64,000 nt of DNA. Origin: Candidatus Poribacteria bacterium (GTDB lineage: Bacteria; Poribacteria; WGA-4E; WGA-3G). Made by a program: the position numbers and the translations under genes. How positions within the stretch are numbered: position 1 is the stretch's first letter; each line of letters starts with the position of its first letter. Where the stretch lies: positions 3,520,001 to 3,584,000 of the forward strand of contig OZ243938.1 in assembly GCA_965214095.1 (NCBI GenBank). The letters run 5' to 3'. Under the pieces are notes generated by a model. It searched no databases, was not told where the DNA came from, and saw nothing but the letters and a program-made list of their open reading frames with translations. This document shows, one piece after another, positions 3,424 through 31,010 of this stretch.

Positions 3424-3507
3424 GACGGTTCTCAACTACAATATAGTTTTTGTATTGTAGGCAACTAACTGATGTATGATAAACGCCAATAGCATTTAGT
3501 GGTCCTT

Positions 3508-4869
3508 ATGGCACAAGCAAAGCACAAATTTGTCTGTCAAGAATGTGGATATACAACGCCGAGAGGACTTGGCAAATGTCCCGGATGTCAGGCTTGGAAT
3601 AGTTTCGCTGAAGAAACAGAAATCGTTTCCACATCTCCTGTACATCGGAGTATCGGTCAACTTTCCAATAAACCTGAAGCAATATCGGACGTTAAAACGG
3701 AAGATATAGAACGACAACTCACTGGGATGCCTGAGTTTGACAGAGTTTTGGGGGGTGGTATTGTTCCAGGGTCGGTAGTTCTTATTGGTGGTGACCCGGG
3801 TATAGGTAAATCAACGCTCTTATTACAAGCAAGCGATGCCCTTAGTCGCAAATACGGGAATGTGCTTTATGTTTCTGGCGAAGAATCGGTTAATCAAACG
3901 AAGATACGTTCAAACCGACTTGGCGTAACTTCAGAGACACTCTATGTTCTATGTGAAAATAATTTAGAACTTATTGAAAAAGAGATAGAAAAACTTCAGC
4001 CTCAAGCCGTTGTTATCGACTCTATTCAATCTGTCTATCTTACGGAATTTCAATCTGCGCCAGGCAGTATCACACAAATACGTGAATGTGCCGCGCAACT
4101 CCTAATTTGTGCTAAGAATCACAACATACCGATTTTTCTCGTTGGACATGTGACAAAAGAGGGAACATTAGCAGGTCCACGTGTTTTAGAACACATAGTG
4201 GATACTGTATTATATTTTGAAGGTGAACGAGACCACATATACCGCATCCTCCGAGCAATAAAAAACCGATTCGGTTCAACCAATGAACTCGGTATTTTTG
4301 AGATGCAGAACAAAGGACTTGTGGATGTTAAAAATCCATCGCAACTTTTTTTAAGCGATAGAGAAGAAGAGATCTCTGGTTCTGTCGTTGTATCAAGTAT
4401 GGAAGGCACGCGTCCTCTGTTATTGGAGGTACAGGCATTAGTCGCACCAACACACTACGGCACACCACGGAACACGGCAACAGGTGTAGACCGAAACCGA
4501 GTTGCACTATTGATTGCAGTGTTGAGTAAAAGAATTGGATTAGACATCGGAGATTCCGATGTATTTGTAAACATTACTGGAGGGTTGCGAGTTAATGAAC
4601 CTGGAATTGACCTCGGTGTTTTAATGGCAATTATATCTAACCACCGTAACATCCCGATAGATCCTCAAACAGTGGTAATTGGCGAAGTCGGATTAGGTGG
4701 AGAAATTAGACCCGTACCGCATCTGGAAACACGGATCCGAGAAGCAGCAAAACTCGGATTCACGCGTGCAATTTTTCCTAAATATCATCAGAAAGGATTA
4801 GAAATCAATGAGAATATAGAACTCATTGGCGTGAAGAATATATATGATAGTCTAAGTAATTTATTGTAA
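3508..4869 (+). CDS. radA: DNA repair protein RadA/Sms
   Basis: C4 zinc finger CQECG...CPGC, GGDPGIGKST, KNRFG, Lon-like C-terminus. Confidence 0.97.
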   Translation: MAQAKHKFVCQECGYTTPRGLGKCPGCQAWNSFAEETEIVSTSPVHRSIGQLSNKPEAISDVKTEDIERQLTGMPEFDRVLGGGIVPGSVVLIGGDPGIGKSTLLLQASDALSRKYGNVLYVSGEESVNQTKIRSNRLGVTSETLYVLCENNLELIEKEIEKLQPQAVVIDSIQSVYLTEFQSAPGSITQIRECAAQLLICAKNHNIPIFLVGHVTKEGTLAGPRVLEHIVDTVLYFEGERDHIYRILRAIKNRFGSTNELGIFEMQNKGLVDVKNPSQLFLSDREEEISGSVVVSSMEGTRPLLLEVQALVAPTHYGTPRNTATGVDRNRVALLIAVLSKRIGLDIGDSDVFVNITGGLRVNEPGIDLGVLMAIISNHRNIPIDPQTVVIGEVGLGGEIRPVPHLETRIREAAKLGFTRAIFPKYHQKGLEINENIELIGVKNIYDSLSNLL

Positions 4870-5073
4870 CACAAACTCAAACAGCAGCAAATTCGGTGAT
4901 GCATTTGTTATGTATTGAAAATACAATTGCAAACGAAGAAAGTTCCTGTAGATCAACAAATATGTCATTAGCATGTATCTTCTCATCAGAAGGGTAATAC
5001 CTCAAGAAGATACGGAACAACGTTCAATAGCGATGAAACGTGTTTCACCGCTACAAACGGTTGAAAAAGAACT

Positions 5074-6108
5074 ATGCAAATTTGGGTAATTCGTATCTTA
5101 TTTATTGTCGCAAGTGCTGTCGTCTGCTATCTGCCAGATAGTAACATTACCAATGGCGGTGTCGGGCTTGCAATTGCAACTGCCCTTGTTGTAGGGGAGA
5201 AATTCCTTCGTGTAACCCACACGCGTAGACTTGTCGCAAGTGTTGTTGGACTTGCATTCGGTCTGCTGATTTCTTTGCTTGGGTTGTACTTATTCAATCT
5301 ATCAAACGCATCACCCGATCAAGACAATTTCTCATTGCCTGGACTATTAGAGAATGTGATTATTCTCGGATTCGGCTATATTGGTATGGTATGTGGATAC
5401 TATATATCCGAAAGTGTCCCGATTGTCCGATTGTTCAATTCCCATCGTTACACACAAATGGGGACACCTTATGCCACAAACGAATCCAACGGATTTAAAC
5501 TATTAGATACAAGCGTTATTATTGATGGACGTATCCTTGAAATCTGTGAGACACAATTTGTTGACGGGACTCTACTCATCCCGCGTTTTGTTCTAAATGA
5601 ATTGCAACATATTGCCGATTCAACTGATCTATTACGAAGAAACAAAGGGAGACGGGGTTTTGACATCCTCCGATCTCTTCAAAACAGTCCATCTATTGTA
5701 GTAGAAATCATAGAAGAAGATGTGCCACATCTTGATGAAGTGGATGCGAAACTCGTACACCTTGCCCGTAAACATTTCGCAAAAATCATTACGAATGACT
5801 TGAACCTAAACAAAGTTGCAGAATTACAAGGTGTCACAGTATTAAACATCAATGAGTTAGCAAATGCCATCCGTCCAATTGTCGTTGCAGGTGAAATCAT
5901 TCAGGTTCATCTACAAAAAGTGGGTAAAGAGCCAAAGCAAGGTGTAGGTTATCTTGATGACGGAACGATGGTTATCGTTGAAGATGGAAAATCGTATATC
6001 GGACAGACAATTGATGTTGTCGTGACACAGATGTTACGAACTAGCACAGGGCAGATGATCTTCGCGCGAAATGTTGACGAGTCATTAACAGAGAAAGGGT
6101 TTCGATGA
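5074..6108 (+). CDS. Membrane PIN/TRAM domain protein (YacL-like)
   Basis: N-terminal TMs, PIN motif LLDTSVIIDGRI, TRAM motif GVGYLDDGTMVIVE; conserved position between radA and ispD. Confidence 0.9.
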   Translation: MQIWVIRILFIVASAVVCYLPDSNITNGGVGLAIATALVVGEKFLRVTHTRRLVASVVGLAFGLLISLLGLYLFNLSNASPDQDNFSLPGLLENVIILGFGYIGMVCGYYISESVPIVRLFNSHRYTQMGTPYATNESNGFKLLDTSVIIDGRILEICETQFVDGTLLIPRFVLNELQHIADSTDLLRRNKGRRGFDILRSLQNSPSIVVEIIEEDVPHLDEVDAKLVHLARKHFAKIITNDLNLNKVAELQGVTVLNINELANAIRPIVVAGEIIQVHLQKVGKEPKQGVGYLDDGTMVIVEDGKSYIGQTIDVVVTQMLRTSTGQMIFARNVDESLTEKGFR

Positions 6109-6815
6109 AATGGCAACAGATGAACAGTAAGATTTCTGTCCTAATTCCTGCTGCCGGACAAGGCAAGCGGATGGAGACATCTGTTAAAAAACCTTATTTG
6201 ATGTTAGGTGATAGACCGATTCTGTCGCATACGATTGATCAATTTGAACAGAACAGTGTCATTGACGAAATTATAGTAATTGTTAACGAATCAGATCTCA
6301 CAACGTGTAAAGAAAGTGTGATTTCACCCTTTCGGTTTAGAAAGGTTCAAGAATTGGTAGCAGGTGGTGAAACACGACAAGTTTCTGTATTCAATGGACT
6401 CCGCACACTTACCGACGATGTTGATTATGTTGTTATTCATGATGGTGTGCGTCCGTTTATAGATGATGATATTATATTCAGATGTCTTGAAGCTACTGCG
6501 GAATGCGGGGCAAGCGTAGCTGCTGTGCCTGTAAAAGAGACCATAAAAGTAGCAAACAGAGATCTCTATATAGACCACACACCTGAACGTGATCTGTTAT
6601 GGCGAGTGCAGACACCACAGGTTTTCCGAAAATCGCTTCTCGTAGCAGCATACAATAAGGCTATTGAAGAGGGGATAAGTGCTCCAGACGATGCGATATT
6701 AGTTGAAAAACTTGGGCACCCAGTAAAATTGGTGATGGGAAGTTATAGGAACGTGAAACTTACAACACCCGATGATCTGCTACTCGCAGAAACTTTGCTA
6801 AATGAAGAAGAATAA
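6105..6815 (+). CDS. ispD: 2-C-methyl-D-erythritol 4-phosphate cytidylyltransferase
   Basis: IPAAGQGKRM, GGETRQVSV, IHDGVRPF, VQTPQVF. Confidence 0.95.
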   Translation: MKWQQMNSKISVLIPAAGQGKRMETSVKKPYLMLGDRPILSHTIDQFEQNSVIDEIIVIVNESDLTTCKESVISPFRFRKVQELVAGGETRQVSVFNGLRTLTDDVDYVVIHDGVRPFIDDDIIFRCLEATAECGASVAAVPVKETIKVANRDLYIDHTPERDLLWRVQTPQVFRKSLLVAAYNKAIEEGISAPDDAILVEKLGHPVKLVMGSYRNVKLTTPDDLLLAETLLNEEE

Positions 6816-16714: not shown

Positions 16715-18172
16715 ATGGCAGACCAACCCCATGTCTTACTAATTAGCACAGATCATTGGCCCAACTCACTACTCGGTGTCAATGACCATCCAGACATCCA
16801 AACACCAACACTTGACTCACTTGCACGCGCTGGCACGCGTTTTACCAATGGATACAGCGAATGTCCTGTTTGTGTCCCCGCACGTAAAACTTTGATGACA
16901 GGCACAACGACACGCACACACAAAGACCGAGTCTTCAACGATAAAATGGGAATCAACGGACTTCCCACAATTGCACAAACATTTCGGGATGCAGGCTATC
17001 AAGCGTACGCAGTCGGCAAACTACACGTCTATCCGCAACGCGATCGCATCGGTTTTGACGATGTGATATTGGGTGAGGAGGGTAGATTACAATACGGTGT
17101 GATTGACGATTATGAACTCTTTCTCGGAGATAGAGGGTATGCCGGGCAGCAGTTTGCACACGGTATGTGTAACAACGACTATCTCAACCGTCCTTGGCAT
17201 CTCCCTGAAGATTGTCATGTCACCAACTGGAGCACCCAACAGATGGTGCGTCAGATTAAACGGCGCGACCCAACCCGCCCCGGTTTCTGGTTCCTGTCCT
17301 ATTGCCATCCACATCCACCATTAGCACCGCTACAATGTTATATGGATATGTATCAGAATATTGATATTGAAATGCCATATCACGGAGAATGGTCTAAAGA
17401 TACAGACAAACTTCCATTACCGTTAAAGTCACGTCAAATGCAGGATGCGCGCTACAATGAGAATCTAATCCGTTCTGCACGTCAAGCGTTTTACGCACTC
17501 TGCACACAAATTGACCATCAATTGCGACTTGTCATCGGTACATTGCGCGAAGAAGGTTTGTTGAACAACACCATCATTCTGTTCACCTCCGACCACGGTG
17601 ATATGCTTGGAAACCATCGGATGTGGGCAAAACGGCTCTACTACGAAGATTCCGCTAACGTACCAATGCTTCTTGTCGGTGCTGCAGGCGACGACAGAGT
17701 CGGACACAACAGAGTTGACAACCGACTCGTTGGATGGCAAGATGTTATGCCGACACTCCTCCATCTCGCCGGTGTTGACATTCCTGATACTGTGGATGGT
17801 ATGCCGATGGTAGGTGACAATCAACGTGAATGGTTATACGGCGAAGTCGGTTCTGGTAGTAGTGCCACCCGAATGATTCATGAAGGACGTTACAAACTCA
17901 TCTACTATGCTATGGGTAACTACCGACAACTTTTTGATTTGGAAGAAGATCCGAGAGAATTCAACGATCTGTCAGCATCCCCTGAACATGCTGATATACT
18001 TGACAGATTGACGAATTTATTGATTGGTGAACTTTATGGTGGTGATGAAAAATGGGTACAGGATGGTGTACTTGTTGGGTTGCCTGACAAAGAATATCGT
18101 CCATCTGCGAATCGTAGTTTATCTGGGCAGCGCGGGCTGCATTGGCCGCAGGCTCCGTCTACTGGACGTTGA
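16715..18172 (+). CDS. Cytoplasmic formylglycine-dependent sulfatase (choline-sulfatase-like)
   Basis: CPVCVPARKTLMTG (CxPxR), VGKLH, FTSDHGDMLG; no signal peptide. Confidence 0.92.
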   Translation: MADQPHVLLISTDHWPNSLLGVNDHPDIQTPTLDSLARAGTRFTNGYSECPVCVPARKTLMTGTTTRTHKDRVFNDKMGINGLPTIAQTFRDAGYQAYAVGKLHVYPQRDRIGFDDVILGEEGRLQYGVIDDYELFLGDRGYAGQQFAHGMCNNDYLNRPWHLPEDCHVTNWSTQQMVRQIKRRDPTRPGFWFLSYCHPHPPLAPLQCYMDMYQNIDIEMPYHGEWSKDTDKLPLPLKSRQMQDARYNENLIRSARQAFYALCTQIDHQLRLVIGTLREEGLLNNTIILFTSDHGDMLGNHRMWAKRLYYEDSANVPMLLVGAAGDDRVGHNRVDNRLVGWQDVMPTLLHLAGVDIPDTVDGMPMVGDNQREWLYGEVGSGSSATRMIHEGRYKLIYYAMGNYRQLFDLEEDPREFNDLSASPEHADILDRLTNLLIGELYGGDEKWVQDGVLVGLPDKEYRPSANRSLSGQRGLHWPQAPSTGR

Positions 18173-18197
18173 ATGTCTAAACCAAATGTGGTATAAT
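18169..18197 (+). promoter_or_regulatory. Sigma70-type promoter of the hsd operon
   Basis: TTGAAT-N17-TATAAT with extended -10 TG. Confidence 0.6.
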
Positions 18198-18219
18198 TTT
18201 AATAAGACTTACGCACCTG

Positions 18220-18243
18220 GTAGGCGCGGTTTCTAACCGCGCC
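18220..18243 (+). repeat. GTAG-REP hairpin in the hsdM leader
   Basis: GTAGGCGCGGTTTCTAACCGCGCC. Confidence 0.75.
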
Positions 18244-18287
18244 GGACATCTTATGAAATTACCGAAATAAGGCTTTCTAAAAGATTT

Positions 18288-19895
18288 ATGGCAAAAAAGA
18301 AATCAAACACAAATAATAACGGTGCAACACTCGGTTTTGAAGCGACTCTATACCAAGCAGCTGATAAACTTCGTAATAACATGGATGCTGCAGAGTACAA
18401 GCACGTGGTGTTGGGATTGATTTTCCTCAAATATATCTCAGATTCTTTTGAGGAAAAATATAACTTTCTACTGGAAGAATATTCTAGTCCTCAGAGTGAA
18501 TTTTTTGTTGCAGAGGAAACCGACCGTTACACGTATGCGGAGGATAGAGACGAGTACTTGGCAGAGAATATTTTCTATGTACCGAAAGAAGCCCGATGGT
18601 CATATTTACAATCAAATGCTAAACAGCCCAATATTGGCACGTTGATTGATAATGCGATGATTGCAATTGAACAGGAAAATCCACGACTCAAAGGTGTGCT
18701 GCCCAAAAACTACGCACGTCCAGGACTTGACAAACAACGACTCGGTGAACTTGTCGATCTCATCGGTACAATCGGTTTAGGGGAAGAAGAGAATCGCTCA
18801 AAGGATATTCTGGGGAGAGTTTATGAATACTTCCTTGCACGGTTTGCCAGTGCCGAAGGCAAAAGAGGTGGCCAGTTCTATACGCCTCGTTGTGTTGTGC
18901 AGCTGCTCGTTGAGATGCTCGCGCCGTATCAAGGAAGGATTTACGACCCGTGCTGCGGCTCAGGTGGCATGTTTGTTCAGAGTGAAGCATTCGTTGAAGC
19001 ACACGGTGGACAGCGGGATGACATCTCTATCTATGGACAGGAGTCCAACCCAACTACGCGGCAATTGGCACTGATGAACCTTTCTATTCGTGGGATTGAA
19101 GCAAATCTCGGACAGGAACACGCCGACAGTTTTCACGACGATCAGCACCCCGACCTGAAAGTCGACTATATCCTCGCTAATCCACCTTTCAACGATAGCG
19201 ACTGGGGTGGTGACCGATTGCGTGAAGATAAACGTTGGAATTACGGCATTCCTCCTACTGGCAACGCTAACTATGCTTGGGTGCAGCACTTTATCTATCA
19301 CCTCGCGCCAAACGGTATCGCTGGATTTGTGTTAGCAAACGGTTCAATGAGTACAAATACCGCAAACGAAGGTGAAATACGCAAAAACATCGTTGAAGCA
19401 GATTTAGTGGATTGCATGGTCGCGTTACCCGGGCAACTCTTCTATTCCACATCTATTCCTGTCTGTCTCTGGTTTATTGCAAGGAATAAAGAAACACACC
19501 GTTTTCGAAAACGTCCAGGGGAGACACTTTTTATAGACGGTCGTAAGTTAGGGAAGATGATTGACCGCGTACACCGTGAGTTAACTAATTCAGAAATGAC
19601 ACGTATTGCTGAAACCTATCACGCATGGCGCGGCGATGAAGGCGCAGATGAATATGCTGATGTGCCAGGCTTTTGTAAAAGCACTACACTTGCTGAGATT
19701 CAGGAGCACAGTAACGTTCTGACTCCCGGCCGGTACGTCGGGGCAGAGATACAGGAAGAGGATGACGAACTGTTTGAGGACGTTATAGTAGATTTGACTG
19801 AGAAATTAACTAAACAGATGGCAGAAGCGAGACGATTAGATGATGCTATTTGTGAGAATTTGCAAATGCTCGGATTTGAAATGAATAAGAGGTAA
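18288..19895 (+). CDS. hsdM: Type I restriction-modification methyltransferase subunit M
   Basis: [23 protein letters not shown], motif [11 protein letters not shown], motif [15 protein letters not shown]. Confidence 0.97.
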
Positions 19896-19900
19896 AGATA

Positions 19901-20149
19901 ATGACAGTAAAAGAATTAATGGAATATCTCCAAAAATATCCAGACGATTTACGAGTTGTTGTTAACGGCTATGAAGATGGCTATGACGACATTGCGTCAG
20001 AACGGATTTTCACGAGAAAAATAAAGTTAGATGCCGGAACTCACGACTGGGAAGGAAAACACGGCGATCCACCCTATGAGACCGAAACAACAACTGATGA
20101 TGCCGAAGTTGTAGATGCTTTGGTTTTTCACCGCGTTCCGTATTATTGA
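19901..20149 (+). CDS. Small acidic hypothetical protein between hsdM and hsdS
   Basis: 82 aa, RBS GAGGT, co-oriented and tightly packed in the operon. Confidence 0.7.
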   Translation: MTVKELMEYLQKYPDDLRVVVNGYEDGYDDIASERIFTRKIKLDAGTHDWEGKHGDPPYETETTTDDAEVVDALVFHRVPYY

Positions 20150-20183
20150 AATAGTTTGAGAATATTAACAGTGGTAGATTATA

Positions 20184-21482
20184 ATGTTTGATTTTCCCGA
20201 TAGATGGCGACTTAGGTCTGTGGAGGAAAGCATGGAAGCAATTATTGACTATCGCGGTAAAACACCGCGCAAAACTCCCTCTGGCACTCCACTGATTACA
20301 GCAAAAATTGTAAAAAATGGTCAGATAATGCCTCCTACCGAATTCATTGCTTCCGAAGGTTATGATTCATGGATGAATCGGGGATTGCCAGAGTCCGGTG
20401 ATGTGGTCATGACGACTGAAGCACCCTTAGGGGAGATTGCACAGATTGATAATTGTAAAGTCGCTCTTGGTCAACGACTGATTACTTTGAGAGGCAAGCC
20501 AGATTTATTAAATAATACCTATCTTAAGTTTGCAATGCAGGCATCGTTTGTGCAAAACCAATTGGAGGCAAGATCTACAGGGACAACGGTGATGGGCATT
20601 TCTCAGCGCGAACTTAGAAAGGTTCAAATACCACTTCCATCTCTATCTGAACAACGCTGCATTGCAAACATCCTTGGCACACTTGACGACAAAATTGAAC
20701 TCAACCGCCAGATGAATGAAACACTGGAAGCAACAGCACGTGCAATTTTCAAATCATGGTTCGTGAACTTTGACCCCGTAAAGGCGAAGATGGAAGGACG
20801 CGAACCTGTATGCATTGATGCGGAAACTGCTGACTTATTTTCATCAGTGTTCCAAGATTCTCCGCTGGGAAAGATTCCGATAGGATGGACAGTTAGCACA
20901 ATTGATGATGATTTTTACCTTACAATGGGACAATCACCACCTGGATCCACGTACAACGAAGATGGAGATGGGATGCCATTCTATCAAGGACGAAAGGATT
21001 TCGGTTTTAGGTATCCAACGCGACGCGTTTATTGCACTGCACCAAAACGATTTGCTAAAAAAGGTGATACCTTGGTAAGTGTTCGTGCACCTGTGGGCGA
21101 TATAAATATGGTTGAGGAAAAGTGCAGTATAGGTCGCGGTGTGGCAGCAATAAGACATAAAAGCGGGAGTCGGTCTTATACCTACTACACCATGCAGTCT
21201 TTGCAGGAAATTTTTTCTCGTTACGAAGCGGAAGGAACGGTTTTTGGGGCAATTAATAAAACTGACTTCCAAACACTATCTCAGATTAGACCATCTGATA
21301 AAATTATCAAAGAATTTGAACGTCTCATTCATCCTTTGGATCAATCTATTGAGAATAACGAAAACGAATCCCGCACACTTTCCCAAATCCGAGATACACT
21401 GCTGCCAAGACTATTATCAGGAGAAATTCGCGTTGAGGATGCAGATGAAATGTTAGAGGTAAAAGATGGCAAACAATCCTAA
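20184..21482 (+). CDS. hsdS: Type I restriction-modification specificity subunit S
   Basis: Two TRDs, PLPSLSEQRCIA..LDDKIELN, LEATARAIFKSWFV, IRDTLLPRLLSGEI. Confidence 0.95.
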   Translation: MFDFPDRWRLRSVEESMEAIIDYRGKTPRKTPSGTPLITAKIVKNGQIMPPTEFIASEGYDSWMNRGLPESGDVVMTTEAPLGEIAQIDNCKVALGQRLITLRGKPDLLNNTYLKFAMQASFVQNQLEARSTGTTVMGISQRELRKVQIPLPSLSEQRCIANILGTLDDKIELNRQMNETLEATARAIFKSWFVNFDPVKAKMEGREPVCIDAETADLFSSVFQDSPLGKIPIGWTVSTIDDDFYLTMGQSPPGSTYNEDGDGMPFYQGRKDFGFRYPTRRVYCTAPKRFAKKGDTLVSVRAPVGDINMVEEKCSIGRGVAAIRHKSGSRSYTYYTMQSLQEIFSRYEAEGTVFGAINKTDFQTLSQIRPSDKIIKEFERLIHPLDQSIENNENESRTLSQIRDTLLPRLLSGEIRVEDADEMLEVKDGKQS

Positions 21483-22974
21483 AGTATTTATTTCATATTC
21501 CCATGACTCTCCCGAACATAAGCAGTGGGTGTCCGAACTTGCTGCACGACTGCGTCGCAATGGAATTGATGCAATGCTTGACCAGTGGGACCTTGGACTC
21601 GGAGATGATATAACACGATTCATGGAACGTAGCATTGTAGACGCTGATAGGGTGTTGGTTATATGCACAGACAAGTACGTGAGCAAGGCAAATGCTGCCG
21701 AGGGTGGTGTTGGCTATGAGCGGATGATTGTAAACGCGGAACTTGTTCAGAATTTAGGGACAGACAAATTTATTCCAATCATCCGTCAGGTATCAGGAAA
21801 AGAAAAAACACCCGTATTTTTAGGTACAAGAGTTTATGCTGACTTTAGAAATGACAGTCAATTTGACGCGGAATGTGAAAAATTAATTCGCGAACTTCAC
21901 GAAATGCCAATCATAGAGAAGCCTCCTTTGGGAAAAAACCCGTTCCCTTCTGTTGAATTAGATCCGCAACTGGTTGATATTCCGGAGCATGTTGAATCCG
22001 CATCTGAGGTTTATAAATTAGCTTCTAAACTTGTCCGGACAGGAGATGTGTTTGGATGGCGACAACTCATTAAACGGGTTCGACCAGGCATATTCGAATC
22101 TTTGGTGCAATGGAGGCAAAATGAATTAGATAGACAAAAACCAGAGAGCATAGAACAATTGGTTCAGGTTGTAGATAAGGCAGTTGAGATTATTTCACCC
22201 TTAATGGTTGTAGCGTTAGTAGGAGTTGAATCTGGTAGAGAGGAATTTCGAGATCAGAAGTCCTTACTTGATGACTTGTTAAACATTTCAGGATGGAATT
22301 CTTCCGGTTACACAACATGGGCAAATATTCCTGAAGCACTGGGATATATCTATCACAGTCTACACGGTGGCCTCAGCATGAGCACAAATCAACTGAATCT
22401 CTCCCTTAGCCTAGCACTAGCAAAAGTCCGCAAAACAGGATATAAAAGAGAATGCCTTCATATTTGGCGGGGAAAAAATCTTATAGGATGGATGGACTCA
22501 CTCGGTTCAAATTGTACAGAAGGTTGGAACTATATAACCAAAGCTTATGAAAGATGGGATTGGCTGTCTCTCATGTTTGGGAACGATTCAAAAGAATATC
22601 AGGCTTCATTGGTTGCCTATTACATGGCACTGAACGTCCATGAGTTAGCAGTAATAATCGCATCAGGTCAACAAGAAAAGTTAAGCAAAAGTTACGGCGT
22701 ATCTTACCCATTTGAGTTTGATGTTCCGTTGACTTTTATGACTGAAAACCAAGATGTTTTTCAGCGAGCACAGACTTTTTTACTTCGAAATTCAGAAGCA
22801 TTCACAGAACTATGGACAATATTAAATGTGACACATGAACAAATGCAGAATTCATGGAAAAAGTGGATTTATTTATTTGAAAGTTGGTTAGGGAATGTCT
22901 ATAAAAATACATCGATGTGGGATGTTTATCATTATAACATTGTCCATTATCAAAACTTTTTTCACAACCTATAA
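21466..22974 (+). CDS. TIR/SEFIR domain protein with unknown helical C-terminal domain
   Basis: KVFISYSHDSPEH, LDQWDL, FME, GGVGYE, KFIPIIR; overlaps the hsdS stop. Confidence 0.88.
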   Translation: MANNPKVFISYSHDSPEHKQWVSELAARLRRNGIDAMLDQWDLGLGDDITRFMERSIVDADRVLVICTDKYVSKANAAEGGVGYERMIVNAELVQNLGTDKFIPIIRQVSGKEKTPVFLGTRVYADFRNDSQFDAECEKLIRELHEMPIIEKPPLGKNPFPSVELDPQLVDIPEHVESASEVYKLASKLVRTGDVFGWRQLIKRVRPGIFESLVQWRQNELDRQKPESIEQLVQVVDKAVEIISPLMVVALVGVESGREEFRDQKSLLDDLLNISGWNSSGYTTWANIPEALGYIYHSLHGGLSMSTNQLNLSLSLALAKVRKTGYKRECLHIWRGKNLIGWMDSLGSNCTEGWNYITKAYERWDWLSLMFGNDSKEYQASLVAYYMALNVHELAVIIASGQQEKLSKSYGVSYPFEFDVPLTFMTENQDVFQRAQTFLLRNSEAFTELWTILNVTHEQMQNSWKKWIYLFESWLGNVYKNTSMWDVYHYNIVHYQNFFHNL

Positions 22975-23031
22975 CCTTATTTTTCGTTAGTCATATTTCT
23001 TGAACAATCTAAGAGAGTCTAAACAATCTCT

Positions 23032-23122
23032 TATACCAAATTAACGGAATTTATCTTTTCCAACGGTAGGTGCGGTTTCCTAACCGCACACTTAGCAAGA
23101 CGAATCACGTTAATTGGGTGTT
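23032..23122 (+). mobile_element. MITE-like element (family B) containing a GTAG-REP
   Basis: Imperfect IR TATACCAAATTAACG / CGTTAATTGGGTGT around GTAGGTGCGGTTTCCTAACCGCAC (23066-23089). Confidence 0.55.
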
Positions 23123-23162
23123 ATATCTGCTAAGAACATCTGACGAAGTTGTTCAGTTAAAT

Positions 23163-23352
23163 GAGGGGTGTGCATAAATATATTATGTGCCAACATTGGC
23201 AGCGTCTCTCATCAAGTATTTCTTTATATGTAATTGTCCCCTTTGTGGCAGCATAATCTATTGAGACGCTTTGATCTTGTGGACGGCACGCGGAGCGTGC
23301 CTACTACTTTTAAGACCATATTTGAGATTGATTTTCTTTATGCACACTCCTC
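23163..23352. mobile_element. 190-bp MITE (family C) with 16-bp TIRs and an 8-bp target-site duplication
   Basis: TIR GAGGGGTGTGCATAAA / TTTATGCACACTCCTC (1 mismatch); AGTTAAAT at 23155-23162 and 23353-23360; internal REP GGCACGCGGAGCGTGCCTAC. Confidence 0.88.
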
Positions 23353-23399
23353 AGTTAAATTTGTCTAAGTGGTGCATCTGATATACCAGAGATAAAAAG

Positions 23400-25070
23400 A
23401 TGACTAAAAATCATAAGGTTTTCATTTCATATTCTCACGATTCTCCAGAGCACAAACGGTGGGTATCCGAACTCGCTGCACAACTTCGGCGCAATGGTGT
23501 CAATACAATACTTGACCAGTGGAATCTTGATCTAAAAGATAATGCTACTCAATTCATGGAACAGAGCGTCAGGGGCTCCGATATGGTCTTAGTTGTTTGC
23601 ACGGATAGTTATGTGAGCAAAGCTAATGATGGCGAAAGTGGAGCTGGATACGAGTCTGTGATAGTGTCTGAAAAAATAGTTGCCGAATTCGGAATTAACA
23701 AATTCATTCCCATAATTCGCCAGACAGAATGGGAAGAAGAAACACCAGATTTCTTAAGAGACCGAGTTTCTATAGACTTTACGAATGACGAACTATTTGA
23801 TGCGAAATTTGAGGAGCTGCTGCATGAACGTCTCTTAGTCCCACCCGGACAAAGACCTGATGTCCCACACATTGAGTCATTACGTGTAAAAAACTACCGT
23901 GCACTACGAGATGTAGAATTAAAACAGCTTAAACCGCTAACTGTCTTTTTAGGTGCAAACGGTAGTGGGAAATCAACGTTTTTTGATGTGTTTGCGTTCC
24001 TATCTGAATGTTTCACAGTCGGTTTGCACCACGCTTGGAACAAAAGAGGTGGACTTAAAGAACTGAGGAGTCGTGGTTGTGATGGTCCAATTGAATTTGA
24101 GTTGAAATATCGTGAGAATCCAAAATCACCAATTATGACATACCATCTGTCTATCAATGAAGATGTAGAAGGTCCTTTTGTTGAAACTGAATGGCTGCAA
24201 TGGAGGATTGGTAGAGGTGGAAAACATGTGCGTTTTCTCAATTTTGAGCGTGGAACAGGGAGTGTTATCCCCGGTGAAAAACCGGATAAAACAGGAACTC
24301 CAATTCATGAACAACTTGATGATCCATCTACACTTGCTGTCAACATGTTTGGTCAATCTTCACAACACCCCCGCGTGGGGGCACTCCGCCGTTTTATTAC
24401 AGATTGGCACCTCTCGGACCTTTCAACCGATGCCACACGCCAGACCACTGACGATGGACCGCAAAAGCGGTTGTCCAAAACAGGGGACAATCTGCCCAAT
24501 GTTATCCAATATCTACAGGAAAGATACCCAGAACGTTTGGAGAAAATCATATCGCTACTATCGGATAGAGTACCACGTTTAGAGAGGGTCGACACAGAAT
24601 TAATGATGGATGGAAGACGTTTGCTGAAAATTAAAGATGCTCCTTTTGAACAACCTATCTTGGCAAAGTTCGCCTCCGATGGCACATTGAAGCTGCTATC
24701 TTACCTAATCCTATTTCATGATAGACAACCGCCGCAACTAATCGGTATCGAGGAACCTGAGAATTACTTACATCCGCGTTTACTTATAGGACTGGTAGAC
24801 ACGTGTCGTATAGCATGCATCACGTCTCAACTTATGATTACGACGCATTCACCACGTTTTGTTAACGAACTCTATACCGATGAAGTATGGGTACTCTATC
24901 GGGATGAACAAGGTTTCACAGTGTGTAAACGCGCGTCGGAGATGCAGGGAATAGAGCAGCTTTTGGATGCTGGCGCGAAATTAGGAAAACTCTGGATGGA
25001 AGGTTACTTTGAATTTGGTGATCCGTTGACCAATGCAGGAGGTCCAAAGCGAAATCTGCATGCACATTAA
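23400..25070 (+). CDS. TIR/SEFIR domain fused to an ABC-type (AAA_21/AAA_15-like) ATPase
   Basis: N-terminal KVFISYSHDSPEH...GAGYE; Walker A GANGSGKST, signature ASDGT, Walker B IGIEEPENYLHP, H-loop TTHSP. Confidence 0.88.
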   Translation: MTKNHKVFISYSHDSPEHKRWVSELAAQLRRNGVNTILDQWNLDLKDNATQFMEQSVRGSDMVLVVCTDSYVSKANDGESGAGYESVIVSEKIVAEFGINKFIPIIRQTEWEEETPDFLRDRVSIDFTNDELFDAKFEELLHERLLVPPGQRPDVPHIESLRVKNYRALRDVELKQLKPLTVFLGANGSGKSTFFDVFAFLSECFTVGLHHAWNKRGGLKELRSRGCDGPIEFELKYRENPKSPIMTYHLSINEDVEGPFVETEWLQWRIGRGGKHVRFLNFERGTGSVIPGEKPDKTGTPIHEQLDDPSTLAVNMFGQSSQHPRVGALRRFITDWHLSDLSTDATRQTTDDGPQKRLSKTGDNLPNVIQYLQERYPERLEKIISLLSDRVPRLERVDTELMMDGRRLLKIKDAPFEQPILAKFASDGTLKLLSYLILFHDRQPPQLIGIEEPENYLHPRLLIGLVDTCRIACITSQLMITTHSPRFVNELYTDEVWVLYRDEQGFTVCKRASEMQGIEQLLDAGAKLGKLWMEGYFEFGDPLTNAGGPKRNLHAH

Positions 25071-25683
25071 ATTCTTCTTAGAGGAGCCTTCTGCTGAGGT
25101 AGCATTAAAGCACATCTTGCCCAAGATTCTTTCACCAGATGTCATTTGTATCTTCCATGCATTTGAAGGAAAGGATGATATGCTCAAAGAATTGCCAAAG
25201 TTTATGAAAGGACACCAATGGATACCTAACGACTGGCGACTTATCGTGTTACTTGATGAAGACCGAAGAGACTGCCACGAACTCAAGGAATATTTAGAAA
25301 AAGCAGCACACGATGCGGGTTTTGTAACAAAATCCAGTGCTGCTCCAGACGAAGATGTTCAAGTTGTCAATCGACTGGCAGTTGAAGAATTAGAAGCATG
25401 GTTTTTTGGAGATGTTGAAGCTTTACATGCAGCTTATCCCAGAATCTCGAAAAATCTCCAAGCTCAAGCGAAATATCGGGACCCCGATGCAATTGGGGGA
25501 GGCACCTATGAGGCTTTAGAACATCTACTGAAACAAGCGCGCTATTATAAGGGTTATCTACCTAAACGTGAGGTGGCTCAGAATATTGCACAACACATGG
25601 AACCGAGTCGGAACACATCCAAAAGTTTTCAGGTGTTTGTTGAAGGGCTTAAAGCATGCGTCCGAGAGAAATCGTTGGTGTAA
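25060..25683 (+). CDS. DUF4276-like (TOPRIM/RloB-like) putative nuclease
   Basis: FFLEEPSAE, LLDEDRRDC, VEELEAWFFGD, NTSKSFQVF; ATG at 25060 overlaps the ATPase 3' end. Confidence 0.8.
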   Translation: MHIKFFLEEPSAEVALKHILPKILSPDVICIFHAFEGKDDMLKELPKFMKGHQWIPNDWRLIVLLDEDRRDCHELKEYLEKAAHDAGFVTKSSAAPDEDVQVVNRLAVEELEAWFFGDVEALHAAYPRISKNLQAQAKYRDPDAIGGGTYEALEHLLKQARYYKGYLPKREVAQNIAQHMEPSRNTSKSFQVFVEGLKACVREKSLV

Positions 25684-25701
25684 CTCGGTTAGGACAATAA
25701 C

Positions 25702-28700
25702 ATGAATCTCAATACAATTTACGAATCTGACATTGAAGAAGCGACACTTGATTGGCTTGCTGACTTGGATTATACTGTTTTACACGGTCCTAACATCGCA
25801 CCAGACGTACCGAATGCTGAACGTTCTACTTACAAAGAAGTCATTTTGACGAACCGCCTACGAGAGGTCATTGCTCGCCTAAATCCAACAATTCCTGTCA
25901 ATGCACAGCAAGAAGCGTTCCGCAAAGTGTTTAATCCAGATTCTCCCGCTTTAGTACAGAACAACCGATCATTTCATCAGATGCTTGTCGGCGGTATAGA
26001 GGTTGAATATCGGACATCAGACGGGACGATACGCGGTGATCGCGTGCGGTTAATTGATTTTGATTCCCCAGAAAACAATGATTGGCTTGCAGTTAACCAG
26101 TTTACAGTAGTAGGAACAAGCAAATGTCGTCCAGACGTTGTGTTATTTATCAATGGCCTTCCATTAGCTGTCATAGAACTCAAAAACCCAACTGATGAAA
26201 AAGCCACTATCTTAACCGCGTATCATCAAATTCAGACTTATAAACAGGAAATATCAGCATTGTTCACTTACAACGAAGCGGTTGTTATCTCTGATGGATT
26301 AGAGGCGCGCATCGGGTCTTTAACAGCTGACATGGAGTGGTTTCTGCCGTGGCGCACAATTAAGGGAGAAGACGAAGCACCATCTACTGAATTAGAGTTA
26401 GAAATATTGATTAAAGGTGTTTTTGAAAAAAGTCGTTTTTTGAGTTATCTTAAGCATTTTATCGTTTTTGAAGAAACAGAGAGCGGAGCAATTGCCAAAA
26501 AGATTGCTGGGTATCACCAATTCCATGCTGTTCAAACAGCAGTAGAAGCAACACTAAAGGCATCAGGTGATGAGGGAGATCAACAGTGCGGTGTCGTTTG
26601 GCATACGCAAGGTTCCGGTAAGAGTTTGACGATGGCTTTTTACGCGGGCAGCATTATTCAACATCCGCAGATGGAAAACCCAACCCTTGTCGTCATCACT
26701 GATACAAACGACTTAGATGATCAACTCTTTGGAACATTTGCACGTTGCCACCAACTGCTGCGACAGACACCAGAACAAGCAGAAAATAGACGACACTTGC
26801 GTGAACTCCTTAAAGTTGCCTCTGGCGGCGTAGTCTTTACGACGGTTCAGAAGTTTTTCCCAGAAGGTGAGGAGACTCGTTTCCCGCAACTGTCTGACCG
26901 ACGAAATATCGTGGTAATTGCAGACGAAGCACACCGTAGCCAGTACGGCTTTATTGATGGGTTTGCCGCTCACATGCGCGATGCACTTCCGAGTGCCTCT
27001 TTTATCGGTTTTACCGGAACACCCATTGAACTCACTGATCGCAATACAGTTGCTGTCTTTGGAGAATACATAAGCACGTATGATATCCAACAAGCAGTTG
27101 ATGATGGAGCAACCGTGCCAATTTACTACGAGAGCCGTCTTGCAAAAATTGAACTTGACGAAGACGAAAAACCGCACATTGATCCCGAATTTGAGGAACT
27201 GACCGAGACAGAAGAGGTAACGGAAAAAGAAAAACTGAAAACTAAATGGGCGCAGCTTGAGGCATTGGTTGGGACAGAAAAACGCTTAAGACTCATCGCA
27301 GATGATATAATTGAACACTTTGGAGAACGGTTAGAAACGATAGATGGTAAAGGTATGATTGTCTGTATGAGTCGTCGTATCTGCGTTGACCTATACAATG
27401 CAATTATTCATCGATGTCCAGAATGGGACAACGATGATGATAAGGATGGCGAGATAAAAGTTGTGATGACAGGATCAGCTTCTGATGACACATCATGGCA
27501 ACCACATATCCGCAATAAAACACGACGAGAGGCATTGGCAACTCGATTTAAAAATCCCAAGGATCCGTTTAAACTTGTCATTGTCCGTGATATGTGGTTG
27601 ACCGGATTTGATGCACCAAGTCTTCACACGATGTATGTAGACAAACCGATGCGTGGACATGGACTGATGCAAGCAATTGCCCGTGTTAATCGTGTGTATG
27701 GTGATAAACCGGGCGGTTTGATAGTAGACTACATCGGTCTTGCTTACCATCTGAAACAAGCTCTAAACAATTACACAAAAAGTGGTGGAAAAGGAAAGGC
27801 TACTCTTGACAAAAATGAGGCAGTTGTGGTTATGATGGAAAAATACGAAATCTGCTGTAATTTGTTTCATGGGTTCGACTGGTCGTTGTGGACTACAGGG
27901 AACGCTGCAGATCAACTAAAATTGTTACCCGCAGCACAAGAACATATCCTGCAACAGAAGAATGGGAAAGAGCGTTTGCTTGAAAATGTGTCAGCACTAA
28001 CCAAGGCATTTGCCCTGGCTGTTCCAGATGAAAAAACAACCGAAATACGGGACGATGTCTCCTTTTTTCAAGCAGTGAGAAAGGTTTTAGCTAAACCATC
28101 AGCTACAGAAGAAGCACAGTGGGATGCCGCCGACCAAGCAATTAAACAGTTGGTTTCCAAAGCTGTTATTCCAGAAGGTGTAGTTGATATTTTCGCCACC
28201 GCTGGACTGGAAAAGCCTGATATCTCCATCCTCTCCGATGAATTCCTTGCAGAAGTGCAAGACCTTCCCCACAAAAACGTGGCAGTTGAACTCTTGGAAA
28301 AACTCCTTAGTGGTGAAATCAAAACGCGTTCACAGAAAAACGTTGTCCAAAGTCGTTCTTTTGCAGAAATGCTGGAACGATCAATCCGTTCCTACCAGAA
28401 CCGAACAGTTGAAGCGGCACAAGTAATTGAAGAACTTATTGAAATCGCAGGAGTGATGCGTCAAGCACAAGACCGAGGCGAGGAATTAGGATTGTCAGAA
28501 GAGGAATTAGCCTTTTATGATGCACTTGAAACTAACGACAGTGCAGTTCAAGTACTCGGTGATGAAAAACTACGTTCCATCGCTATTGAACTTGTAGATA
28601 CCGTTCGGAAAAGTGTGACTATTGACTGGACAATAAAAGAGAGTGTACGAGCAAATATACGTAGGTTGGTGAAGCGGACTCTTCGCAGACACGGTTATCC

Positions 28701-28776
28701 ACCTGATAAACAGGAAAAAGCTGCACAAACTGTTTTGGAACAAGCAGAAGTATTGTGTAAAGACTGGGAGATATAG
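25702..28776 (+). CDS. hsdR: Type I restriction endonuclease subunit R
   Basis: [66 protein letters not shown]. Confidence 0.97.
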
Positions 28777-28922
28777 TAGTTGGAATACGAATTCAATTTG
28801 TTAAATTTGTGTCCGTAAAATCTATCTTTGCACACATTTGTTTGTCAACAGGATGAGGCGAGGTTAGGAAACCTCGCCTACCGTTGATAGAAAGTGTAGA
28901 TATAATTCTATGCTTCACCATA
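28772..28922 (-). mobile_element. MITE family A variant overlapping the hsdR stop codon
   Basis: Begins TATAGTAGTT (contains the hsdR TAG), ends CTTCACCATA; REP GGCGAGGTTAGGAAACCTCGCCTAC; 3' part shared with 14332-14394. Confidence 0.6.
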
Positions 28923-28929
28923 ATTGGTA

Positions 28930-29000
28930 AAATTGGTAATTTTTTGATCGGAAAAACCCAGTCACAGACAAGATTCGTGTCCGGAAAAGATTACCAATTT
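28930..29000. repeat. Short element bounded by an imperfect inverted repeat
   Basis: AAATTGGTAATTTTTTGATCGGA ... TCCGGAAAAGATTACCAATTT. Confidence 0.5.
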
Positions 29001-29134
29001 CCTGAAAGTATCAACTAGAATATGAACAGTTGTGAAAATAACCAAACTGTCACGTAACTAGCATAAGTCGTCATTTTAGTATTATTTTCTATTGATTGAT
29101 AAACAACACTGCAACACCTTCCGTGGAGATAAAC

Positions 29135-30412
29135 ATGAATTTCAGTGATGAAGAAATTAAACGCCAAATGCGTTTAGGTGAAGACAGCCACTGGGAATTC
29201 AAGGAAATTGTGTTTTCTGAAAACAAACCCAAGAGTCCCGGCCGTGCCGATCTTGCAGACGAACTCGCTGCATTTGCAAATGCAGATGGTGGTGTAGTTC
29301 TATGTGGTGTGACCGATAATGGTGATGTTCAAGGCATGTCCCGCGAACAGATGGACAGATTGGAGATGCTCCTAGTTGAGATTTGCACTGATACTATTAA
29401 ACCCTCAATTCGTCCTACTATATTCCGAAAAGAAATTGAAGAAGGCAAACCTTTCCTCCTCATAGAAGTACCACAGGGATTTGCATTACACAATAGTCCG
29501 GGTGGCAGCTTTCACCGAGTTGGTAGTTCAAAACGCAAAATGACAACCGATGAACAATTGCGGCTTGCTCAACTGTGTTCTCAGGCACGTTTCGTCTGGT
29601 TCGACAAGCAACCCGTACCAGGAACAGGTTTCGGTTCATTGGATGAATCACTGTGGAAACCATTGCTCAGTGCCGAAGGTGCTACCGATCCTGAATTAGC
29701 ATTGGAGAAAATGGGGCTCCTTACGCACGATGAAAATGGCGTATTACGTGCAACCGTTTCAGGTGTATTATTGTGTACCCTTTCACCAGAAGAATGGTTA
29801 CCCAATGCCTATATTACTGCAACTTGTTATAGGGGAGAAGACCGTGCTTCTGGACAAATTGATAGCCAAACTATTACGGGACCACTTAACAAACAAATTG
29901 GTGAAGCAGTTGCCTTTGTAGTCCGTAACATGCGCGTCGGAGCATATAAGAATCCTGCCCGAACCGACCTGCCTCAATATAGCGAAAAAGCACTCTTTGA
30001 AGCAATTGTCAACGCCGTTGTACATAGAGACTACGCAATACATGGCAGCAAAATTCGGATTTCAATGTTTGCAGACCGTATCGAAATAAATTCACCTGGA
30101 GGGTTACCTAACAATCTAACGATTAATAGTATGGAAGTCCGACAATCAACTCGCAACGAAGCTCTTACTTCAATACTCGGAAGAATGCCCGTTGCGAAGA
30201 TACATGGTTCAGGTGACCGACAATTCTTCATGGAAAGACGTGGAGAGGGCGTACCAATTATTATACGAGATACGGAAGAGTTATGTGGTAAACAGCCAAA
30301 GTATAAACTCATTGATAATTCAGAACTTGTTCTTACAATTCCAGCAGCCAAGACAGATTCCTCACCCGCAGCCCGTTCATTTCCTTCCAGGGGAGGATTT
30401 ACACCTTACTGA
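29135..30412 (+). CDS. Schlafen/AlbA_2 domain plus HATPase_c_4 (RecG C-terminal-like) protein, apparently lacking a C-terminal HTH
   Basis: GEDSHWEFKE, AAFANADGG, GVTDNG; ALFEAIVNAVVHRDY, DRIEINSPGGL, MERRGEG. Confidence 0.85.
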   Translation: MNFSDEEIKRQMRLGEDSHWEFKEIVFSENKPKSPGRADLADELAAFANADGGVVLCGVTDNGDVQGMSREQMDRLEMLLVEICTDTIKPSIRPTIFRKEIEEGKPFLLIEVPQGFALHNSPGGSFHRVGSSKRKMTTDEQLRLAQLCSQARFVWFDKQPVPGTGFGSLDESLWKPLLSAEGATDPELALEKMGLLTHDENGVLRATVSGVLLCTLSPEEWLPNAYITATCYRGEDRASGQIDSQTITGPLNKQIGEAVAFVVRNMRVGAYKNPARTDLPQYSEKALFEAIVNAVVHRDYAIHGSKIRISMFADRIEINSPGGLPNNLTINSMEVRQSTRNEALTSILGRMPVAKIHGSGDRQFFMERRGEGVPIIIRDTEELCGKQPKYKLIDNSELVLTIPAAKTDSSPAARSFPSRGGFTPY

Positions 30413-30571
30413 TGCTAACGGAATCGAATTAATAGTACGTATTATTGCTATTGTCGGTAATTCGGCATTATTGGAATATTGTCCTGATACAAATGAGCGC
30501 AGCGATTGACTTAAATCACCTTGTTGACATTAATTTGATATATACATTTTGAAACATGAATTCATTCATCC

Positions 30572-30600
30572 TTGACAAAATCAATTGAATGCGTTACACT
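30572..30600 (+). promoter_or_regulatory. Sigma70-type promoter upstream of the STAS gene
   Basis: TTGACA-N17-TACACT. Confidence 0.6.
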
Positions 30601-30656
30601 AAACACAGTTTAAACTATTTCCGCATATATAAGCGGAAAAACTATGAGGGAGAAAT

Positions 30657-31010
30657 ATGTTAGCTGAAATTCGTAACAGAGAAGGTGTTATTGTTATCCG
30701 TCCGACTGGACGAATGATCGGGGCAGCAAACGTTGAACTTAGACAACAAATTCAGGAAGAACTTGAGGAATACTTTGATTCACCAAAGGTAATCTTCAAT
30801 CTTGAAGAAGTTACCCGAATGGATAGTAGTGGTTTGGGAACACTCGTTTCCGTTCACGTCACTATCACGCGAAAAGGTGGACGCACGGCTCTTGTCAAAG
30901 CAGGCGCGCATATCAGAAATCTACTCGTTCTTGGAAGGTTAGCGTCCGTTTTTGAAAGTTACGACACTGAAGAGGAAGCAATCCTTGAACTGAATGCAGA
31001 GAAAAGTTAA
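30657..31010 (+). CDS. STAS domain anti-sigma factor antagonist
   Basis: FNLEEVTRMDSSGLGTLV phospho-Ser motif; 117 aa. Confidence 0.9.
   Translation: MLAEIRNREGVIVIRPTGRMIGAANVELRQQIQEELEEYFDSPKVIFNLEEVTRMDSSGLGTLVSVHVTITRKGGRTALVKAGAHIRNLLVLGRLASVFESYDTEEEAILELNAEKS

Follow-up and report, generated by a model that had tools for sequence, protein, structure and literature searches.

A SEFIR domain fused to an HEC-01-type ABC ATPase within a type I restriction-modification operon of Poribacteria

The 64,000-nucleotide stretch of a Candidatus Poribacteria chromosome that we analysed (contig OZ243938.1, positions 3,520,001 to 3,584,000; hereafter the window) contains a type I restriction-modification (R-M) operon with three further genes between hsdS and hsdR. 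Gene 1 encodes a protein of the bSEFIR family, gene 2 an ABC ATPase preceded by a SEFIR domain, and gene 3 a TOPRIM-like protein of the DUF4276 family, genes 2 and 3 resembling the pair called Hma-embedded candidate 01 (HEC-01). The new element here is a SEFIR domain of 155 residues joined to the HEC-01-type ATPase. In the reading that we favour, with a probability of about 0.6, the hsdS-hsdR gap of this chromosomal, vertically inherited R-M locus holds two immune modules, the second of which has borrowed a domain from the first. Module A would be a single-gene bSEFIR, made of an N-terminal SEFIR domain of the kind that degrades nicotinamide adenine dinucleotide (NAD+) and a fast-evolving, helical C-terminal sensor. 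Module B would be an HEC-01-type pair, in which the gene of a DUF4276 TOPRIM nuclease overlaps that of an ABC ATPase; the ATPase would have gained, in an ancestor within the Poribacteria, an N-terminal copy of the SEFIR domain of the neighbouring bSEFIR. By comparison with described relatives, the locus is a real, lineage-specific fusion built of known kinds of components, with a mechanism that we infer. The three genes are as follows.

21466-22974, plus strand: gene 1, bSEFIR-family protein of 502 residues (open reading frame list, Pfam, PADLOC)
23400-25070, plus strand: gene 2, SEFIR domain and HEC-01A-type ABC ATPase, 556 residues (Pfam, PADLOC)
25033-25683, plus strand: gene 3, DUF4276/HEC-01B TOPRIM-like protein of 216 residues (Pfam, PADLOC)

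The open reading frame coordinates agree with an earlier, sequence-only reading of the window, in which three intact, co-oriented genes had been placed between hsdS and hsdR, the first overlapping hsdS and the last two overlapping each other. The start of gene 1 overlaps the end of hsdS by 17 nucleotides, and gene 3 overlaps gene 2 by 38 nucleotides, or by 11 if it starts at Met10 (25060).

Gene 2 consists of a SEFIR domain (residues 1 to about 150, 23400-23864) and an ABC ATPase (residues 156-556). Pfam assigns TIR_2 (4e-21) and SEFIR (3.5e-14) to residues 6-141 and AAA_21 (9.4e-25) to residues 180-489, with an additional match to AAA_15. Among the best 25 of 141 PADLOC matches, the HEC-01A profile PDLC04182 covers residues 156-541 (7.6e-154) and bSEFIR covers residues 1-154 (1.8e-60). 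The G-x-G-Y-E motif of the SEFIR domain reads GAGYE, with its glutamate at residue 85, and aligns with GVGTE of the solved Bacillus cereus SEFIR domain 5y8e. Over a stretch of 153 residues, the SEFIR domains of genes 1 and 2 share 58% identity. In the ATPase we observe a Walker A motif (GANGSGKST, with Lys191), a D-loop/Walker B region (IGIEEPEN), a signature (SDGT) and an H-loop (TTHSP), all of which vary little or not at all among 73 fused homologues. Foldseek searches with the predicted structure, an AlphaFold2 model of moderate quality (pLDDT 68, a predicted local distance difference test score) that was used for fold class only, returned 5y8e for the SEFIR part and PtuA, GajA, OLD and Rad50 for the ATPase part.

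Gene 3 matches Pfam DUF4276 (4.5e-30) and the PADLOC profile HEC-01B (PDLC04202, 1.5e-83). The latter match begins at Met10, and 25060 is the likely start of the gene, judging from the sequence. The acidic TOPRIM residues E17 and D75-x-D77 do not vary among 42 relatives, namely those of 54 loci whose match exceeds 190 residues and is free of stops. DUF4276 has been assigned to the Toprim superfamily (PMC12065111; here and below, statements taken from cited work refer to the accessible part of the source). It is the sole Pfam match of gene 3, whose 14 PADLOC matches include no AriB model. Thus the pairing of an ABC ATPase with a TOPRIM-like protein, proposed in the sequence-only reading, is borne out by the HEC-01A and HEC-01B profiles. 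The same is true of the TIR/SEFIR N-termini with their glutamate motifs, on which Pfam and the sequences agree, and of the intact ATPase motifs. The description of the module as undescribed has to be narrowed: PADLOC names the genes singly, as bSEFIR and HEC-01A/B, but the fusion architecture is unnamed and the HEC-01A match starts at residue 156. A literature search returned no published description of a SEFIR-ABC fusion, the supplementary tables of the PADLOC/HEC and bSEFIR papers and an ABC ATPase classification paper being outside its reach.

Gene 1 likewise begins with a SEFIR domain (residues 1 to about 150, 21466-21930), followed by an all-helical C-terminal domain (residues about 165-502, 21943-22971). 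Pfam assigns TIR_2 (3.7e-24) and SEFIR (1.4e-15) to residues 5-141. The PADLOC bSEFIR profile PDLC03957 matches at 1.1e-79, with residues 1-301 on positions 35-310 of 412, so that the last 200 or so residues lie outside the match. The SEFIR motif, GVGYE, again aligns with GVGTE of 5y8e. The authors of bSEFIR selected proteins whose N-terminal SEFIR match ranks above the TIR match by HHsearch (bioRxiv 10.1101/2022.05.11.491447, 10.1101/2024.02.11.579819). Against solved structures, gene 1 shows this order, with the SEFIR domain 5y8e at 2.3e-27 and the best TIR domain at 1.2e-3, whereas the order is reversed in the Pfam hmmscan (TIR_2 86 bits, SEFIR 58 bits). In Foldseek, the SEFIR part of the predicted structure matches 5y8e and 5y8f, with a fold that resembles TIR NADase assemblies. 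bSEFIR protects Bacillus subtilis from phi29 and reportedly uses the SEFIR domain at its N-terminus to deplete NAD+ (bioRxiv 10.1101/2022.05.11.491447, 10.1101/2024.02.11.579819).

The 340-residue helical C-terminal domain of gene 1 has no Pfam or PHROG match, and a comparison of the whole 502-residue model with the PDB, in which this domain was not folded alone, gave matches to the SEFIR/TIR part and none to the C-terminal domain. The domain belongs to a family of 393 representatives. In 44 of these, hand-picked from 150 listed and surveyed with Pfam, it is joined to TIR_2 (22), SEFIR (21), protein kinase (4), ParA-like ATPase (3) or LexA DNA-binding (1) domains, or stands alone. Because it occurs with such varied partners or by itself, the C-terminal domain is likely a sensor or regulatory module.

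Gene 1 also varies in its architecture and surroundings. Intact SEFIR-less forms of about 350 residues are found at L005 8828-9880 and L037 8860-9909 (proteins P0141 and P0154; L numbers denote loci and G numbers genomes), and a SEFIR-less short gene 1 is seen in about 15 of 120 listed metagenomic clusters. In another Poribacteria genome (L090 2093-6830), three tandem bSEFIR-family genes of 502, 509 and 515 residues fill the hsdS-hsdR gap, with no HEC-01. The gap of L088, in another genome (reverse strand, 4450-6657 and 3380-4492), holds a SEFIR-less gene 1, then a GHKL-type ATPase of 736 residues (HATPase_c_3 and HATPase_c), a 371-residue protein with no Pfam match and an unfused HEC-01 ATPase. 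In L091, a SEFIR-less gene 1 stands ahead of an insertion sequence (IS).

The origin of the fused domain was examined with two trees, in which support is given by the Shimodaira-Hasegawa-like approximate likelihood ratio test (SH-aLRT). In the SEFIR tree, the 19 gene 2 SEFIR domains form one clade (SH-aLRT 97), nested together with gene 1 SEFIR domains in a 36-row Poribacteria clade (SH-aLRT 91), from which 18 outside bSEFIRs stand apart. Because the gene 2 domains form one clade and group with the Poribacterial gene 1 domains, the phylogeny indicates that the fused SEFIR is a single local duplication from the neighbouring Poribacterial bSEFIR lineage. In the ABC tree, the outgroups are all unfused and 19 of 19 fused rows fall in one R-M-embedded clade of 33 rows, in which unfused rows are nested at no fewer than four places. 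Some unfused loci (L019, L021, L052) retain remnants of a SEFIR tail and broken copies of gene 1. A distinct allele, which combines a SEFIR-less gene 1 with a divergent gene 2 SEFIR, sits on three different ATPase backgrounds, which points to cassette exchange. One gain, several losses and some cassette exchange is the best reading of these sequences. As for the route, tandem bSEFIR arrays occur as three copies in L090 and as two copies ahead of the fusion in L078. Such arrays are a plausible step toward fusion, in which a second bSEFIR copy would lose its C-terminal domain and join the downstream ATPase.

We estimated selection as the ratio of non-synonymous to synonymous substitution rates (dN/dS) in 15 loci from 15 species with the complete arrangement, using pairs with 0.05 < dS < 1.5 only. 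Median dN/dS is 0.09 for the gene 1 SEFIR, 0.25 for the gene 1 C-terminal domain, 0.19 for the gene 2 SEFIR, 0.12 for the ABC ATPase and 0.17 for DUF4276, with 0.08-0.09 for the comparison genes hsdM and hsdR. Every part of the module is, by these sequence comparisons, under purifying selection. The glutamate of the SEFIR motif is retained in 17 of 17 gene 1 and 17 of 19 gene 2 SEFIR domains, and in at least 90% of the 73 fused homologues. The low dN/dS and the retention of the glutamate indicate that the fused SEFIR is maintained, although it is less constrained than its parent in gene 1.

The sequence-only reading had allowed for the fusion being a singleton or an assembly chimera. It is neither: the best 120 of 7999 matches give no fewer than 120 protein clusters that carry it, at 74-89% identity, and it recurs in 18 species-level loci and, at full length, in 30 of 176 genomes of the phylum, where it occurs in two families (f1 and f3). 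The gene 1 C-terminal domain is found in 62 of the 176. The 18 loci with a fused ATPase, out of 53 at species level, include closed chromosomes and all belong to Poribacteria (18/18); this search was keyed on peptide patterns of gene 2 itself, and its coverage outside Poribacteria is limited accordingly. Independent TIR/SEFIR-ABC fusions may exist beyond the phylum. Unfused forms occur in other Poribacteria, cyanobacteria, Elusimicrobia, Chloroflexi and Sumerlaeota, the unfused relatives of the ATPase being 404-418 residues long, and the nearest large clusters of the ESM Atlas are all unfused, at about 400 residues. No record among 72,556 plasmid and 50,697 phage records covered at least 80% of the query. 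One phage match (H18, query residues 7-216) was considered as a second fusion of SEFIR and Walker A, and was rejected because the match overruns the stop of a 400-residue open reading frame.

The genome of the window contains a second, unfused HEC-01 pair (L055, G000:C1:2816193-2820392), with an ATPase 71% identical to that of gene 2 and an adjoining DUF4276 gene, located outside any R-M operon and beside a PhyH-family gene. The fused pair is kept where the hsd genes are gone in L002, L005, L011 and L037. In L018 (9887-10060; also G154 and G129), the hsdS frame continues without a stop into an unfused HEC-01 ATPase, giving a frame of 855 residues, while a stop separates the two in L020. From these frames, some Poribacteria may have a translational HsdS-ABC fusion.

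Around genes 1 to 3, the window shows the following features.

18288-19895, plus strand: hsdM, type I R-M methyltransferase (Pfam N6_Mtase 8.7e-109, HsdM_N 3e-26)
19901-20149, plus strand: conserved open reading frame of 82 residues between hsdM and hsdS, in the same place in many related loci
20184-21482, plus strand: hsdS, specificity subunit (Pfam Methylase_S 1.9e-23, two stretches)
22975-23399, no strand: spacer of 425 bp between genes 1 and 2, with a repetitive extragenic palindromic (REP)-like unit and a miniature inverted-repeat transposable element (MITE)-like element
23035-23119: REP-like unit, 23-nucleotide inverted arms around a 27-nucleotide palindrome (inverted-repeat search)
23157-23358: MITE-like element of about 200 bp with 22-nucleotide terminal inverted repeats (inverted-repeat search and genome copies)
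23285-23301: terminator-like hairpin, GC-rich and followed by a T-run, within the MITE-like element
25702-28776, plus strand: hsdR, restriction subunit (Pfam HSDR_N, SWI2_SNF2 and T1RH-like_C, all strong)
29096-30412, plus strand: Schlafen-like gene (Pfam SLFN_AlbA_2 and HATPase_c_4)

The type I R-M set is complete, with hsdM, hsdS and hsdR all present as full-length open reading frames with strong Pfam matches. Across species, the order is sulfatase, hsdM, (Schlafen-like gene), 82-residue open reading frame, hsdS, (gene 1), (SEFIR-)ABC, DUF4276 and hsdR, where parentheses mark the variable parts. The hsdS genes are variable among loci, with 35-85% identity, as expected of target-recognition domains. 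The 82-residue open reading frame has an acidic product, with no match in Pfam, PADLOC or NCBIfam and weak PHROG matches only, to entries of unknown function. The Schlafen-like gene follows hsdR in the window and in L001 and L015, but lies between hsdM and the 82-residue open reading frame in most related loci; it is a travelling companion of the R-M locus that shifts position inside the operon. In four metatranscriptome runs of one study there are contigs with 90-95% similarity to hsdM, hsdR and the ATPase part of gene 2, and gene 1 and both SEFIR regions lack cover; the contigs belong to relatives and come from RNA libraries that may contain DNA.

The spacer between genes 1 and 2, on which the sequence-only reading did not remark, is about 60-250 bp in relatives versus 425 bp here. 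The 27-nucleotide palindrome of its REP-like unit recurs more than 20 times in the genome, often as facing pairs, and the MITE-like element has at least 13 other copies, 93-98% identical, scattered over the same genome. An Rfam scan of 18000-31000 gave no family above its threshold. Promoter-like sites (21) are not above the 23.5 expected from shuffles, and terminator-like sites number 16 against 9.6 expected; from these predictions we took no more than the hairpin within that MITE-like element.

By analogy with PARIS, Septu and Gabija, an oligomer of the ABC ATPase would sense infection and hold the TOPRIM nuclease. Upon the trigger, the ATPase would free or activate the nuclease and, at the same time, draw its SEFIR domains together. 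The clustered domains would then degrade NAD+, as in the TIR and SEFIR NADases, giving a two-effector abortive response behind R-M as the first line. Gene 1 most likely can act on its own, as bSEFIR does, and it is possible that it cooperates with the fused ATPase through SEFIR-SEFIR contacts. Since gene 1 occurs without HEC-01 (L059, L082, L090) and the fused pair occurs without hsd genes, dependence on neither HEC-01 nor hsd appears to be obligatory. We also considered a further elaboration, in which a mixed filament of gene 1 and gene 2 SEFIR domains guards type I R-M, with two sensors that respond to different infection cues, for example R-M inhibition, and with both NAD+ loss and TOPRIM cutting of tRNA or another nucleic acid as outputs. 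This elaboration strikes us as quite unlikely.

Several points weigh against the reading of two modules with a borrowed domain. The defence role of the core HEC-01 pair rests on its candidate status, HEC-01 having given no protection in Escherichia coli against any phage tested (bioRxiv 10.1101/2024.01.29.577857). The counts of co-occurrence come from related genomes and adjoining genes and are not independent events, and the SEFIR and ABC trees both come from quick searches whose sole support measure is SH-aLRT. The glutamate is lost in two of the 19 gene 2 SEFIR domains (L003 and L012), and the SEFIR domain has been deleted repeatedly while the ATPase-TOPRIM pair stays; the pair can thus do without the domain, which might work as an adaptor and not as an enzyme. 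The conserved glutamate presumably corresponds to the catalytic one of TIR NADases, and NADase activity of the SEFIR domains of genes 1 and 2 is one that we infer from their relatives. Finally, the MITE-like element with its terminator-like hairpin between genes 1 and 2 argues against obligatory co-transcription.

The three genes might instead form one integrated, interdependent system, in which gene 1 or its C-terminal domain senses for or regulates the SEFIR-ABC/TOPRIM complex and the SEFIR domains build a heterotypic NADase filament. We regard this as unlikely, though with a real chance of being right. Gene 1 is indeed present in 29 of the 30 genomes with a fused ATPase versus 33 of 146 others, and a SEFIR-ABC gene lies within 1.5 kb after gene 1 in 24 of the 30 best gene 1 loci; nevertheless, adjacency and shared descent can by themselves account for these counts, as a single deletion removes gene 1 and the fused SEFIR together. 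In L005 and L037 (= L065, L062), the fused ATPase comes right after the SEFIR-less gene 1 of 350 residues, suggesting that the C-terminal domain can use a SEFIR domain in trans, but the same form precedes other genes elsewhere (a GHKL ATPase and an unfused ABC ATPase in L088, an IS in L091). Interdependence is also at odds with the occurrence of gene 1 directly between hsdS and hsdR without any HEC-01 in L059 and L082, with its three tandem copies in L090, with a fused ATPase lacking gene 1 in L012/G119, and with the MITE-like insertion that parts gene 1 from gene 2 in the window. Each gene 2 SEFIR is 56-80% identical to that of its own neighbour over residues 1-95 and 42-58% over residues 96-155, a pattern compatible with gene conversion or co-adaptation. 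bSEFIR itself requires a residue predicted for SEFIR-SEFIR contacts, as seen with the D40A mutant (bioRxiv 10.1101/2022.05.11.491447, 10.1101/2024.02.11.579819), which would fit a filament.

The repeated loss of the fused SEFIR also bears on whether it is a non-catalytic adaptor or regulator, serving as a handle for oligomerisation, or else inhibiting the bSEFIR next to it or acting as its decoy, so that the TOPRIM nuclease would be the sole effector of genes 2 and 3. The domain evolves about twice as fast as that of gene 1 (dN/dS 0.19 vs 0.09), two of 19 copies lack the glutamate, the aspartate of the LDQW stretch varies in some alleles (L006, L008, L012, L037), and eukaryotic SEFIR domains are interaction modules (bioRxiv 10.1101/2022.05.11.491447, 10.1101/2024.02.11.579819). 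We nonetheless judge this explanation distinctly improbable, as 17 of 19 loci, together with at least 90% of 73 homologues, retain the glutamate and the surrounding G-x-G-Y-E, and as the domain descends from a bSEFIR lineage whose family reportedly depletes NAD+. That the genes are not immune at all here, being selfish or addiction modules by which the R-M locus is kept stable, or else relics that no longer have a role, seems barely credible to us. In its favour, the one published HEC-01 test gave no defence, the locus belongs to the chromosome, in conserved synteny, and is not mobile, and the modules are often lost or broken. On the other hand, all parts are under purifying selection across 15 species, every relative with a known role is an immune protein, and the hsdS-hsdR gap is recognised as a site of embedded defence genes (bioRxiv 10.1101/2024.01.29.577857).

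HEC-01 is widespread, and a natural version with an NADase-type domain offers a simple read-out, NAD+ loss, of the moment and manner in which ABC ATPase sensors of this class fire. The fusion would also test whether ABC-ATPase/TOPRIM systems drive more than one effector. The locus is a clean and datable case of immune-system building, in which the effector domain of a neighbour was duplicated and grafted on a different sensor inside an R-M operon, then kept across a clade, exchanged as a cassette and, in places, shed. Knowledge of immunity in uncultured sponge symbionts is scant, and the locus adds to it. Were the mixed filament to be real, no earlier ABC-ATPase/TOPRIM system would have had a second effector built in, and heterotypic SEFIR signalling would be new to bacteria.

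Among known systems, bSEFIR shares with gene 1 the N-terminal SEFIR domain, the conserved glutamate and part of the C-terminal region of the family, but gene 1 lies within an R-M operon, beside a paralogous SEFIR fused to an ATPase, and some of its alleles are SEFIR-less. HEC-01 pairs an ABC ATPase with a TOPRIM-like protein, the metal site of which is conserved, and lies within other defence systems (bioRxiv 10.1101/2024.01.29.577857). As in HEC-01, the ABC ATPase of gene 2 is followed by an overlapping DUF4276/TOPRIM gene inside another defence operon. The differences are the extra N-terminal SEFIR domain of 155 residues in gene 2, which lies outside the 406-position HEC-01A profile, and the host operon, which is type I R-M here and Hma for HEC-01.

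PARIS, which pairs the ABC ATPase AriA with the TOPRIM protein AriB (PMC11464382), resembles genes 2 and 3 in having an AAA_15/21-type ABC ATPase with a small TOPRIM nuclease and in its link to anti-restriction sensing, and the AriA profiles of PADLOC match gene 2 at 3.4e-25. However, the nuclease is DUF4276 here versus DUF4435 in AriB, the ATPase is far nearer to HEC-01A than to AriA, and a SEFIR domain is present here, whereas the accessible part of the PARIS source mentions no TIR or SEFIR. MAD3/MAD4 of MADS and the DUF4276 effectors of Menshen (PMC12065111) also join a DUF4276 Toprim partner to an AAA/ABC ATPase, in a setting of defence that is linked to methylation. Gene 2 matches MAD3 (NCBIfam 1.5e-32, PADLOC mad3 2.5e-22), but its NCBIfam score of 113 bits is far under the equivalog cut-off of 420, other MADS genes not having been looked for. 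PrrC and RloC are anticodon nucleases of hsd operons in which one polypeptide carries both an N-terminal ABC ATPase and, at its C-terminus, the nuclease; in the present locus, DUF4276 is encoded apart from the ATPase. A weak PrrC or RloC profile match may lie below the best 25 of the 141 PADLOC matches. We also weighed ABC-3C/Lamassu as an earlier example of ABC systems that bear effectors and set it aside, as its effector sits on a separate protein. Finally, in TIR- and SIR2-effector systems with an NTPase sensor (TIR-NLR/AVAST, SPARTA, Thoeris), an N-terminal effector of the TIR superfamily is likewise carried by an oligomerising sensor. The driver of the present fusion is not a STAND NTPase or an Argonaute but an ABC ATPase of the OLD/PtuA/GajA kind, accompanied by a separate second nuclease.

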